From a virus (taxonomy: Duplodnaviria > Heunggongvirae > Uroviricota > Caudoviricetes), in IMG/VR virus record IMGVR_UViG_2529293042_000032, positions 1-7,728 of that record: a DNA stretch of 7,728 nt; one strand, written 5' to 3'. The notes under the pieces are model-generated. The model did not search any database. It was not told where the DNA came from and worked only from the letters and a program-made list of their open reading frames with translations. This document shows, piece by piece, positions 765 to 7,728 of this stretch. The position numbers and the translations under genes are program-made. How positions within the stretch are numbered: position 1 is the stretch's first letter; each line of letters begins with the position of its first letter.

Positions 765-840
765 TGGTGCGTTGTAGTGGGTCGAACCAGTGACCGATTG
801 CTTAGAAGGCAATTGCTCTGTCCGGCTGAGCTAACAACGC
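765..840 (-). tRNA. tRNA-Arg (anticodon UCU), T-arm non-canonical as read
   Basis: 76 nt manual cloverleaf: acceptor GCGTTGT/ACAACGC, D-stem GCTC/GAGC, anticodon stem ATTGC/GCAAT with loop CUUCUAA, CCA encoded. T-loop reads TTCGAC (6 nt, one short) in a CCC run. Confidence 0.65.
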
Positions 841-1074: not shown

Positions 1075-1151
1075 TCTGGTAAAGTTCATGCGTTTGGTTC
1101 GCCTCGCGATACAGCTTTGCGAAGCTTACCGGAATTGAAGCAGTTTTTACG

Positions 1152-1718
1152 TCAAAAAGCAATAACTTTTTTCTCTATACCAAAAGCCATAACCATTGGT
1201 TTGTACAAAATAAATTCTGCCACCTTTAGCCAATGCTCAATGCGTCTTTCACAGGTTCTTAAACTCCATTCCGGATGTGCATCATTCAGCAATTCAGCCA
1301 TTTTGCGCTTAGTCATCCCCCGCCCCACATAACGCTGACTCAGAACATTGAGCAGCCCGGGATAACCTGCCAGTACTTCACCAATAACCCTATCGATTAT
1401 TAACGCCTCTGAATCGGTACAATGTGCCAGCCAGCTTTTTTGATTGCCGTTGATCATATCCCGCAAAAAAGCCTCAAGTTCAGGTTTGTCCAGACCCGCT
1501 TTTTTCATCCTCCGGAGCGCCTCGTTAATTGCCGTTTTTGTCAGCTTTTTAGAGGTCAGTAATTGGTTGAACATATTTCCCGTCTTACCGTCGCCAATAT
1601 ACGACCAACGCCCCCACATACGCAGTTTCCCCTGGATCCAGACACTTTCCAGCGTTTTCAGGCGTAAATGCTCACCGCTTTTGCCTGTAATTTCCGGGTA
1701 TATCATATTTATGCTCAC
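1152..1718 (-). CDS. Putative late-gene antiterminator Q-like protein, 188 aa
   Basis: GTG 1718-1716 (alternative ATG 1706-1704) to TGA 1154-1152. Sits directly after rusA and directly before a strong terminator and the tRNA cluster, the canonical Q slot. Assignment by synteny, not by search. Confidence 0.5.
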   Translation of the reverse strand: MSINMIYPEITGKSGEHLRLKTLESVWIQGKLRMWGRWSYIGDGKTGNMFNQLLTSKKLTKTAINEALRRMKKAGLDKPELEAFLRDMINGNQKSWLAHCTDSEALIIDRVIGEVLAGYPGLLNVLSQRYVGRGMTKRKMAELLNDAHPEWSLRTCERRIEHWLKVAEFILYKPMVMAFGIEKKVIAF

Positions 1719-2073
1719 TCACTTTCAATTTTGTAAATCTTCACGCCCAGCCGCCCACCAGAAACGAGCTAGCCGCGCACAATATTGATTTCATCAAACT
1801 GCTCGTCGTCTATGGGAAGTCCGGCATGCGTCAGCGCATCCAGTGGTGCTTTCAGGATATTGTCCAGGTCACGACGGCGCTTATCCGGTGGCTCTGCAAT
1901 AATCTTTATCGCCAGCCTTCCGGACAGGTTAATTTCAGCCGCTGCTGGCGAACAATAAGTGCCACATCCCGGCGATAACGCTCACCGGCTTTTGATACAA
2001 AATATGTGCTGCCACGACGTCGCCAGTAGGTGTTCACCGTCGGCGGGTAAGGCAAAACAAACTCTATACGCAT
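1715..2073 (-). pseudogene. rusA: RusA-like Holliday junction resolvase, disrupted by a frameshift and an in-frame TAG
   Basis: ATG 2073-2071 (GAGG SD) reads MRIEFVLPYPPTVNTYWRRRGSTYFVSKAGERYRRDVALIVRQQRLKLT then hits TAA 1908-1906. The RusA motif continues in another frame (GRLAIKIIAEPPDKRRRDLDNILKAPLDALTHAGLPIDDEQFDEINIVRG), meets TAG 1771-1769, then LVSGGRLGVKIYKIESE to TGA 1717-1715. Span is 359 nt, not a multiple of 3. Confidence 0.65.
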
Positions 2074-2085
2074 CAGTAACCTCTT

Positions 2086-3190
2086 TTACCCGAGCACGCC
2101 GGTTGCAAAGGCGTGATCAAGAAAACGAAAAATTAAATCAACCTGGGAACCATGCTTTTCTTCGAACGCCAGCGGATCCGCATGAAGCTCGTTGTGATGC
2201 TCCCGACACAGCGGTAGCGTGAAAATATCGTGGGATTTTGTTCCCATTCCGCCCTGACCATGACCAATCAGATGATGAGGATCGTCCGCTGGCCTTACCA
2301 CAACACGCACACGGCTGTGTCTTTACCCAGCGTGTGTATTTCTCATTTACCCAGCGGCGACGTTTAGGTCGTTTCATGAAGGATTCCGGAGACTCCGGAT
2401 CAACGGCAATGCTGACCACCGTCTTTTCCTGTGGTGGGTTCTGTTGCTGGTGGGTGTGAGGCGGTAGCGCAATATTTTTTGTGCGCTGCTTCAGTATGCT
2501 GGTGGCGGTCTGTTCTCCCGGTATGATGTCGCTTTCACGGTATACGGAGCGGATTTTTTCCGCCGGTAATCCCAGAGAGCGACGCGATACTGCCTCAGGT
2601 AATGCGTCCACCACCTGATTGCAGACTGCCCACCAGGATAATTCAGCCAGCGATAATTCCCGCTCCTGCGTGCCATTCATTACATGGCGTATGACGTCAA
2701 TCATCCAGGCTGTCAGATTTTGTTGAGTAAGTTGCTCAAGTGATTCGGAGGTCTGGTCGCGCAGCTGGTTGTCGCAGTGCCAGCACAACACCATTGCGCC
2801 AGCACCGTAACTGTGAATAACGGTTTCGCTGTGATGATAATCGCCGTGTGGCCACTGGCAGGATTTCACGTGACGTAATAACCAGTCAGACAGTGCACCA
2901 GCGCCGCCAGCTGCACGAATCACCCGCTCATCGCTGAAAAATGGCAGCAGTGATTTATCTTCCGCCAGCGGCTGGCGAACAGCAGGAACCGCTCCAGATG
3001 GCAGCGCCCGCATGTTTTTCGGTTCCGGCTCCACCAGCACCCTGCCGCGATGAAAAACTGGCAATGATTCACGACCGGGCTTAAGGACCACCAGCCCGAG
3101 TTCCGGAACCAGAACAGGTCGAAGTAATACCCGCACATTACCTCCAGACGCGCTGACGGTAGCAGGCATGTGTCCGTGGCAGATGTGCAC
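2086..3190 (-). pseudogene. YdfU/DUF968-like Cys/His-rich protein, apparently frameshifted in its C-terminal domain
   Basis: Long frame (GTG 3190 or ATG 3169) carries MKRPKRRRWVNEKYTRWVKTQPCACCGKA then low-complexity sequence to 2138. The conserved continuation DDPHHLIGHGQGGMGTKSHDIFTLPLCREHHNELHADPLAFEEKHG is in the +1 frame, ending TAA 2088-2086. Switch near 2290-2296 (GGCC run). Layout resembles E. coli Qin YdfU (about 350 aa) from memory. Confidence 0.45.
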
Positions 3191-3410
3191 GAACAGGAAG
3201 ATATACAGAAACGGTCCAGGTCAGACGATCAGCGTTCAGACTCCGCTCCACACGGACACCGCGACGCAGATACGCCTCTTGAAGCATATCTGCCTCATCG
3301 ATCGTACAGAACAGATAGTGAAACCAGCCATACTGAGGCGCACGAAAACGCCTCCCCTGCTTAATTTCCGGGTCGGCTTCAGAATTGTGGGATTTTATGT
3401 GTTGTGTCAT
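3138..3410 (-). CDS. Hypothetical protein, 90 aa
   Basis: ATG 3410-3408 with GGAG SD 6 nt upstream. Starts MTQHIKSHNSEADPEIKQGRRFRAPQYGWFHYLFCTIDEADMLQEAYLRRGVRVERSLNADRL. The last 30 residues look low-complexity. Overlaps the start of the next ORF. Confidence 0.4.
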   Translation of the reverse strand: MTQHIKSHNSEADPEIKQGRRFRAPQYGWFHYLFCTIDEADMLQEAYLRRGVRVERSLNADRLTWTVSVYLPVRAHLPRTHACYRQRVWR

Positions 3411-3459
3411 CGGATTCTCCGGTGACAGCAGGTGTCAGTTGTTCAGGCTGACTGCGCGA

Positions 3460-3488
3460 ATTGTAAGGCAATACGCCGGAATGTACAA
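3460..3488 (-). promoter_or_regulatory. Candidate sigma70 promoter (TTGTAC-N17-TACAAT) for the nin-like/Q operon
   Basis: Minus strand -35 TTGTAC (3488-3483) and -10 TACAAT (3465-3460) with 17-nt spacer, between the upstream terminator and the 3410 start. Confidence 0.3.
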
Positions 3489-3514
3489 ACAGAAAACCCG
3501 TCAGTAAGACGGGC
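3486..3514 (-). terminator. Intrinsic terminator after the YgiW-like gene
   Basis: Minus-strand RNA CCCGUC-UUACU-GACGGG followed by UUUUCUGUUUG, 18 nt past the stop at 3534-3532. Confidence 0.55.
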
Positions 3515-3531
3515 TTAACAAGCAGGGGCGG

Positions 3532-3876
3532 TTACTTTAATAATTTCAGTGCCTTTACATCAACTTCAACACTGCTCAGGTCTTTATCAATTTCACCCTC
3601 AATTCTTACTTTGTCTTTCGGAGAAACATTCTGACCGGCCCATATGCTGTCATCGATATCCGTGACAATTGTCCCGCTATTGTCACGAAACTCATAACGT
3701 TCATCACCCACTTTTTTAACGATGCTCCCTTCAAGGATAACCCATGCATCATCCTTCAGTTCTTTTGCCTGCGCTACTGTTGAACGCTCTGCTTCAGGCC
3801 CTTGGAAACCGCCCTGCTGTGCAAAAGCGCCAAAAGACACACCAGAAATAAGTGCTGCAATCAATACCTTTTTCAT
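3532..3876 (-). CDS. YgiW/YdeI (BOF) family OB-fold periplasmic protein with signal peptide, 114 aa
   Basis: ATG 3876-3874 with AGAGGA SD. N-terminal signal MKKVLIAALISGVSFGAFA. Family pattern QGGF.GP...STV.QAK.L.DD..V.L.G.IV.K..D..Y.F.D..G.I..DIDD..W present. Confidence 0.8.
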   Translation of the reverse strand: MKKVLIAALISGVSFGAFAQQGGFQGPEAERSTVAQAKELKDDAWVILEGSIVKKVGDERYEFRDNSGTIVTDIDDSIWAGQNVSPKDKVRIEGEIDKDLSSVEVDVKALKLLK

Positions 3877-6963: not shown

Positions 6964-6994
6964 ATCTGAAATATCAAGTTAAATCCCCTTAAAT

Positions 6995-7080
6995 GTTTGG
7001 GGCACTATTGGGGCAAAATGTGGTTGTTTGGGGCACTATTGGGGCAAAATGTGGTTGTTTGGGGCATATTTGGGGCAAAA
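6995..7080. repeat. Tandem direct repeat, 31-bp unit x about 2.8, giving six TTGGGGCA motifs
   Basis: Units 6995-7025 and 7026-7056 are identical (GTTTGGGGCACTATTGGGGCAAAATGTGGTT); a variant partial unit runs 7057-7080. Motif starts at 6997, 7008, 7028, 7039, 7059, 7070 (spacing alternates 11 and 20 bp). AAAGAACG x2 follows at 7080-7098. Confidence 0.75.
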
Positions 7081-7620: not shown

Positions 7621-7728
7621 ATGGCAAACCATCGAGGCGGTTCCGGCAATTTTGCAGAAGACCGCGAAAGAGCATCAGAAGCAGGTAAAAAAGGTGGCAA
7701 GAGCAGTCACGGCAAAAGCGACAACTAG
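7621..7728 (+). CDS. ymdF: KGG-repeat general stress protein (YmdF/YciG family), 35 aa, single-repeat form
   Basis: ATG 7621 with GGAGG SD 6 nt upstream, stop TAG 7726-7728: MANHRGGSGNFAEDRERASEAGKKGGKSSHGKSDN. Lies next to wrbA as ymdF does in E. coli K-12. Window edge coincides with its stop codon. Confidence 0.8.
   Translation: MANHRGGSGNFAEDRERASEAGKKGGKSSHGKSDN

Follow-up and report, generated by a model that had tools for sequence, protein, structure and literature searches.

Probable layered decay of a RusA-family resolvase gene upstream of an intact Q gene in an Sp11-type prophage region of Escherichia coli O157:H7 DEC3C

Does a broken resolvase gene in a prophage remnant impair the antiterminator gene that follows it? 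This question is raised by a stretch of viral DNA of 7,728 nt (the window), in which a rusA-like frame directly precedes a Q-like gene. The original prediction held that rusA carries two independent lesions, that its natural stop codon overlaps the start codon of Q, and that its early termination could lower the expression of Q and help to keep the remnant silent. The explanation that we favor is a layered decay of a RusA-family resolvase gene upstream of an intact Q gene. The pair would belong to a defective lambdoid prophage of the Sp11 type in the O157:H7 strain DEC3C and would lie at the end of its nin region that is distal to the promoter. As a whole, this explanation has a probability of about 80%. 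The features are compiled in Table 1.

Table 1. Features of the rusA-Q region and gene order of the window (all on the minus strand)
Feature	Position	Strand	Description
rusA pseudogene	1715..2073	-	ancestral gene of 119 codons plus TGA; repaired frame matches the RusA family
55-aa rusA product, the sole translatable one	1906..2073	-	stop codon TAA 1908-1906; deposited as EHU75335.1, DEC3C
-1 frameshift site	1929..1930	-	A-run AA versus AAA in all relatives, codons L48/N49
Private missense change L87P	1814..1816	-	CCC (Pro) replaces CTC (Leu); changed base 1815
In-frame TAG, Gln102 (CAG) to stop	1769..1771	-	carried over from the Sp11-type allele
Ancestral rusA stop codon TGA	1715..1717	-	end point of intact 119-aa alleles
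rusA-Q junction	1707..1722	-	weak Shine-Dalgarno-like GUGAGUGAG (1722-1714) and 8-nt spacer (1714-1707)
Intact Q-like antiterminator gene, 184 aa	1152..1706	-	start codon ATG 1706-1704
DUF968 gene, frameshifted by one extra C at 2293 (private)	2086..3136	-	GGC to GGCC, near codon 282
Right-hand genes, read from right to left		-	antirepressor, TraR/DksA-like, ead/DUF551
Next genes leftward		-	131-aa ORF, hok/mok, BOF (YgiW-like) gene
Then		-	90-aa ORF, DUF968, RusA, Q
Left of Q		-	tRNA-Ile(CAU), tRNA-Arg(UCU), TerB, DUF3927

Contig AIFG01000019.1 of the draft genome of E. coli DEC3C (GCA_000249295.2) contains the window with 100% identity, and the first base of the window lies 138 bp from the end of that contig. 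The DEC3 group is presumably O157:H7, and the database matches agree with this assignment. The gene order is DUF968-RusA-Q-tRNA-Ile-tRNA-Arg-TerB-DUF3927, and in the related loci holin and lysozyme genes follow. Q is flanked by the nin region on one side and by the tRNA/lysis late region on the other, which is the position of a lambdoid Q gene. In prophage Sp11 the pair corresponds to ECs_2194/ECs_2193 of strain Sakai (annotated as "phage endonuclease" and "phage antiterminator") and to EDL933_RS09995/RS10000. From position 1098 to 3562 the window is 99.8% identical to Sp11 of EDL933 and Sakai and differs only at 1109, 1815, 1929/30, and 2293. The 2.4 kb in common include the derived TAG at codon 102, the rusA-Q junction, the 184-aa Q protein, and the DUF968 neighbor. 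In contrast to Sp11, the window has the additional -1 frameshift, L87P, and the +1 insertion in DUF968, it lacks about 1.2 kb between Q and tRNA-Ile (genes for a 65-aa hypothetical protein and an HTH protein), and its right flank is a remnant near ymdF/rutG instead of the Sp11 replication genes. Sp11 flanks are thus not present on both sides. The left part (1-1043) is not Sp11-like, its best identity to any complete genome being 97.4%, and the copy may therefore belong to a different, though related, prophage and not to Sp11 proper. The short spacer between Q and tRNA-Ile (1013-1152) has 98% identity to another EDL933 prophage at 2.15 Mb.

On the minus strand, the RusA-like ORF opens with ATG 2073-2071, and this start codon is preceded by an AAGAGG ribosome-binding site. 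Insertion of one nucleotide restores a frame of 119 codons that ends with TGA 1717-1715, in agreement with the predicted repair and length. The alignment with prophage Sp11 of Sakai and EDL933 pinpointed the indel to the A-run at 1929-1930 and not to 1915-1925, so that the frame breaks 5-15 nt away from the place originally proposed. The repaired 119-aa conceptual translation matches the Pfam family PF05866 with 58.8 bits (cut-off 22.8) over profile positions 1-123 of 124, while the actual 55-aa ORF reaches 20.7 bits and stays under this cut-off. It also matches the RusA structure 1Q8R with E=1.6e-22 and is 92-96% identical to intact homologs of 119-126 aa. D70, D72, and D91 of K-12 RusA are essential catalytic aspartates. 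They align with D69, D71, and D90 of the repaired frame, and these residues are invariant in 22 homologs. The respective codons are found only downstream of the frameshift, and therefore no product of the window contains them. An uninterrupted ORF of about 119-126 codons is not present, because the frame is interrupted by the frameshift at codon 49 and the TAG at codon 102 and has Pro at codon 87. Judged by its sequence, rusA counts as a pseudogene. It carries more than one lesion, and no functional protein would be possible from it.

A member of the family for comparison is RusA of the cryptic K-12 prophage DLP12 (PDB 1Q8R, 2H8C), which belongs to the same Pfam family and aligns over residues 5-116 including the catalytic aspartates. 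As in the window, the K-12 gene is a resolvase gene upstream of Q in a defective lambdoid prophage. K-12 rusA is intact but poorly expressed, and it is activated by upstream IS insertions. In contrast, it is the coding sequence itself that is broken in the window.

The in-frame TAG at 1771-1769 was correctly foreseen and is seen in the restored rusA frame. At this position most aligned homologs have Gln, and three have Lys, Leu, or Val. Sp11 of Sakai and of EDL933 carries the TAG, and rusA is annotated there as a 101-aa RusA. A prophage copy of an O111:H- strain, in contrast, is identical through the whole junction except for CAG at codon 102. The intact 119-aa RusA (WP_001217447.1), together with a DUF1133-type Q, is found in E. 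coli O111:H- 110512 and in other O111, O145, and O103 strains. This allele represents the ancestral state, with CAG at codon 102, TGA, an 8-nt spacer, and the ATG of Q, and it contains neither the nonsense codon nor the frameshift nor L87P. A 41-mer centered on the TAG was found in 260 of 5,426 complete genomes, and its CAG counterpart in 124. The eight rows sampled from the TAG set were O157:H7 or strains labelled only as E. coli. The CAG set includes O145, O111, and O103 strains. Also in this set is PV15-279, a beta-glucuronidase-positive O157:H7 strain that falls outside the cluster of typical O157:H7. The sampled rows suggest that the TAG is confined to the typical O157:H7 branch. Its presence in Sp11 of Sakai and EDL933 and in 260 complete genomes characterizes it as an old nonsense mutation. 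Both forms of the protein are abundant: at least 999 contigs encode the 101-aa form, and at least 1000 encode the exact intact form of 119 aa.

An AlphaFold model of an intact homolog (pLDDT 83) contains beta-strands at residues 54-60, 93-100, and 109-115 and a helix at residues 70-83, and it is the last strand that is cut away by the TAG. It could be argued that the TAG is no lesion at all, that the 101-aa RusA is a functional short form, and that the 62 nt after the TAG are a spacer. All three catalytic aspartates are indeed encoded upstream of the TAG, the 101-aa protein is listed as an ordinary CDS by PGAP and in the Sakai annotation, and the allele persists in the 260 genomes. However, persistence is also expected for a neutral mutation in a clonal lineage, and an otherwise identical CAG allele exists in the 124 genomes. 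In addition, both the Pfam profile and the alignment with 1Q8R continue past the TAG to residue 113-116, the reading frame beyond the TAG has retained the codons for the conserved GGRLGVKIY strand, and the strand 109-115 belongs to the core of the model. A functional short form is therefore quite improbable. Inactivation of the truncated 101-aa protein by the TAG is putative. Regarding annotation, what pipelines list as an intact 101-aa "RusA" in hundreds of O157:H7 genomes is an allele of a 119-aa gene that has been shortened by a nonsense codon.

The frameshift and L87P have a different distribution. The missing A changes TTAAAC to TTAAC on the minus strand (TTT to TT at 1929-1930 on the plus strand, codon 49), and AAA was found at this site in all copies aligned, namely Sp11 of Sakai and EDL933 and four others. 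None of the 5,426 complete E. coli genomes contains a 28-mer that spans this allele. Codon 87 encodes Leu, Val, or Ala in all homologs that cover it (17 of the 18 aligned; the remaining one, P0087, ends before). A third private change lies outside of rusA, in the DUF968 gene, 365 nt from the rusA frameshift; after removal of the extra base a 349-aa protein is obtained that is identical to WP_001265229.1 of Sp11. The Pro87 allele and the DUF968 insertion allele are likewise absent from the 5,426 complete genomes, and the TAG query, which was found in 260 of them, was the positive control of these searches. In the whole collection, the 55-aa rusA product and the 332-aa product of the frameshifted DUF968 gene are each present on one contig. 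The postulated independence of two lesions holds only in the sense of these differing histories, the TAG being inherited and the frameshift private to the contig, but L87P as a third lesion had been overlooked.

The decay of rusA would accordingly be layered in time. The first step would be the change from CAG to TAG at codon 102, common to the 260 complete genomes, by which the last beta-strand would be lost. The upper layer would consist of the -1 frameshift at codon 49, which would remove the whole catalytic core, and of L87P, both restricted to this assembly. The frameshift, L87P, and the DUF968 frameshift are confined to this contig, so they may be sequencing errors. For the rusA frameshift and the DUF968 indel, very recent strain-private mutation and sequencing error are about equally likely, and the frameshift thus has an even chance of being real.

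The stronger version of this alternative is that the -1 frameshift, L87P, and the DUF968 insertion are all sequencing or assembly errors of the 2012 draft of DEC3C and that the true sequence is the Sp11 allele with the TAG only. We regard the odds of this as balanced. In about 15 billion proteins and 5,426 complete genomes, no contig but this one carries any of the three changes, both indels alter the length of a base run, and the sites lie 2-2.4 kb from the contig end in multi-copy prophage DNA. Four private differences, two indels and two substitutions, are concentrated in 2.5 kb, whereas 30 complete O157 genomes among the matches listed are mutually identical across the same approximately 2.4 kb, and the adjoining single-copy 6.6 kb are identical to EDL933 except for four mismatches at the junction. 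The far-left part of the window is a fine patchwork of paralog alleles, as a collapsed repeat would give, and the window joins two modules that are joined in no complete genome. However, the base runs are short, just 2-3 bases, and such lesions do accumulate in defective prophages. Furthermore, the divergent N-terminus of TerB on the same contig stays in frame, and its changes are partly synonymous and look natural. The five other copies examined are invariant at 1815, 1929-1930, and 2293, so mixed reads of the sampled paralogs would not create the changes. For the same reason, gene conversion from paralogous copies, or a mixed consensus of them, is not supported as an origin of the three changes. 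The additional frameshifts of DEC3C should not be taken as biology ahead of read-level support.

The structure of the contig is mosaic. A crossover is located at 3562-3634; the sequence to its left is of the Sp11 type, and the sequence to its right is identical to an EDL933 remnant that is located between 933W and ymdF/rutG. A distance of about 510 kb separates the two modules in EDL933, where they have inverted orientation. The overall arrangement of the window is present in no complete genome, the best coverage being 57%. Prophage-mediated inversions are well documented in O157:H7 (PMC8743559), and the join, which is absent from finished genomes, is either a mis-join in a chimeric contig or a strain-specific prophage-mediated inversion of this documented kind. 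At least three paralogous copies of O157 prophages are represented by alleles in the patchwork at 1-1043, which also has ten private changes. A search for a second assembly with the same copy, based on the TerB allele (165-596), found this allele on this contig only. A collapsed-repeat consensus artefact at the private sites is not directly demonstrated, because these sites do not coincide with differences between the paralogs. In comparison with argO of Sp11, the tRNA-Arg(UCU) gene in this part (765-840, minus strand) has a G to C mismatch in the T-stem, a 1-nt deletion in the T-loop, and a change of the discriminator base from G to A; this points either to a possibly degenerate tRNA or to errors in the sequence.

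Full-length RusA could in principle still be produced by recoding, via a programmed frameshift at the A-run or via read-through of the TAG by a suppressor tRNA, and two tRNA genes are indeed located just downstream of Q. These encode Arg-UCU and a tRNA of the Ile/Met type with a CAU anticodon, and neither is a suppressor. The A-run context CUGAAAUUAACC does not contain a slippery heptamer of the type X XXY YYZ, and the deletion is missing from every relative, so there is no conserved signal. The chance that recoding rescues rusA is practically negligible.

Eight nucleotides past the ancestral stop codon of rusA, an intact gene of the Q family (DUF1133) would start with the ATG at 1706. The Q protein matches DUF1133 (PF06576) with 349.3 bits and Phage_antitermQ (PF06530) with 33.1 bits (cut-off 26), and the exact 184-aa protein is encoded on at least 1000 contigs. 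It had been proposed that Q starts with GTG 1718-1716, which overlaps the stop codon TGA 1717-1715. The overlap does exist, but several observations exclude this GTG as the start codon. In the GTG-ORF, the match to the DUF1133 profile does not begin before residue 5, and gene callers as well as PGAP place the start of the 184-aa protein at ATG 1706-1704. The predicted duplex with the 3' end of 16S rRNA has -4.7 kcal/mol for the ATG versus -0.9 kcal/mol, without Shine-Dalgarno pairing, for the GTG. In addition, the N-terminus MIYP is kept behind unrelated upstream DNA, in loci in which Q follows a DUF1364 gene, and in an ETEC copy the 8-nt spacer between TGA and ATG differs while the coding DNA past the ATG is unchanged. 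Therefore, the true arrangement is TGA, 8-nt spacer, ATG, and the GTGA overlap is coincidental.

Downstream of Q, a GC-rich hairpin (AACCCGC-N6-GCGGGTT) followed by a T-run was noticed by eye at 1040-1065 on the minus strand, 87 nt past the stop codon of Q, and it is a candidate terminator of the tR' type. It was not listed by a terminator scan, and no promoter-like site was found by scanning.

The corrected start codon leaves the question whether the translation of Q is coupled to that of rusA. The gap between the rusA stop and the Q start is also 8 nt in two related loci in the intact state, one of them the ETEC copy, and stop/start overlaps of 4-8 nt are found in five loci with other Q types or other upstream genes. 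The close spacing that coupling calls for is thus present in the intact relatives. The Shine-Dalgarno pairing of the Q ATG is the weakest among the window genes checked (-4.7 versus -5.6 to -12.9 kcal/mol), and therefore a dependence on upstream translation is plausible. On the other hand, the predicted minimum-energy fold leaves the start region of Q unpaired, so that initiation could take place independently. Reportedly, Kroger and Hobom described the lambda ninR genes in 1982 as a chain of interlinked genes. Tight packing, with stop codons a few nt from the next start, is found in every relative examined, and the spacing at the rusA-Q junction is this usual interlinked packing of nin-region genes. 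In contrast to lambda ninR, this type of Q has an 8-nt gap instead of an ATGA overlap, and the coupling of the pair is only predicted. On these grounds translational coupling between rusA and Q appears plausible.

An effect of the early termination on transcription could also be envisaged, via Rho-dependent polarity in the untranslated stretch of 199 nt. This is unsupported: with 57 G against 43 C, and with a C/G ratio of at most 1.35 in any 78-nt window, the stretch is rich in G and not in C, and a Rho-loading signal is not obvious. An in-frame GTG at 1744-1742, 24 nt past the TAG, opens an ORF of 9 codons (1744-1715, minus strand) that ends at the ancestral TGA, and re-initiation at this GTG could return ribosomes to the rusA-Q junction.

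The original model goes one step further and proposes that the early termination of rusA lowers Q via coupling and helps to silence the late genes. In its favor are the 8-nt stop-start distance with this Q and the 4-8-nt overlaps elsewhere, the weak Shine-Dalgarno pairing, and the interlinked organization known from lambda. However, the true start is an ATG with a weak Shine-Dalgarno sequence of its own in a region predicted to be unstructured, a C-rich Rho-loading stretch is absent, and the 9-codon mini-ORF could even bring ribosomes back to the ancestral stop. Moreover, the TAG allele is unchanged in 260 complete genomes, and no compensating change has occurred at the junction. Q is indeed preceded by a gene that now terminates early, but this is common to the 260 genomes and not specific for the remnant. 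Sp11 of strain Sakai has a disrupted repressor and a disrupted integrase, and it is therefore unable to excise, replicate, and package; circularization, replication, and packaging were not found (PMC2669165). In the window, the early region of the prophage is entirely absent. Therefore, the silence of the element needs no contribution of rusA, and the model in its full form is unlikely. The claim that rusA termination helps to silence the remnant is not supported, since Sp11 is already immobile for other reasons, and uncoupling is not what silences the prophage.

The preferred reading, the layered decay upstream of an intact Q, is compatible with a partial dependence of Q translation on rusA translation, but any loss would have begun with the lineage-wide TAG. 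The TAG would be the first uncoupling lesion, and because it is fixed in the 260 complete genomes, it does not set this remnant apart. Uncoupling, if it occurs, would be older than DEC3C and would apply to the whole typical O157:H7 lineage. One could go further and regard the Q102-stop change as a selected taming step that uncouples Q and lowers read-through into the tRNA/late region, with DEC3C a further step, but this is very unlikely. In our opinion the observations represent ordinary prophage gene decay, and the genes are already annotated in public records. The biological weight is small. Defective lambdoid prophages are numerous in O157:H7, and pseudogene decay in one of them is routine.

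The opposite situation was observed in another O157 prophage, of E. coli strain 272 (2127185-2127873), in which rusA is intact (119 aa) and the downstream Q is annotated as frameshifted. At the right end of the window, a 31-bp tandem repeat with 2.8 copies (consensus TGTTTGGGGCACTATTGGGGCAAAATGTGGT) is present at 6994-7080. It is identical in EDL933 and sits in a non-coding stretch of 0.9 kb between the antirepressor gene and the ymdF-like gene. The latter (7621-7728, plus strand) encodes a 35-aa KGG-repeat protein up to the window end and is annotated as "general stress protein" in EDL933. YmdF of K-12 has 57 aa, and the ymdF-like protein of the window appears to be one repeat unit shorter.
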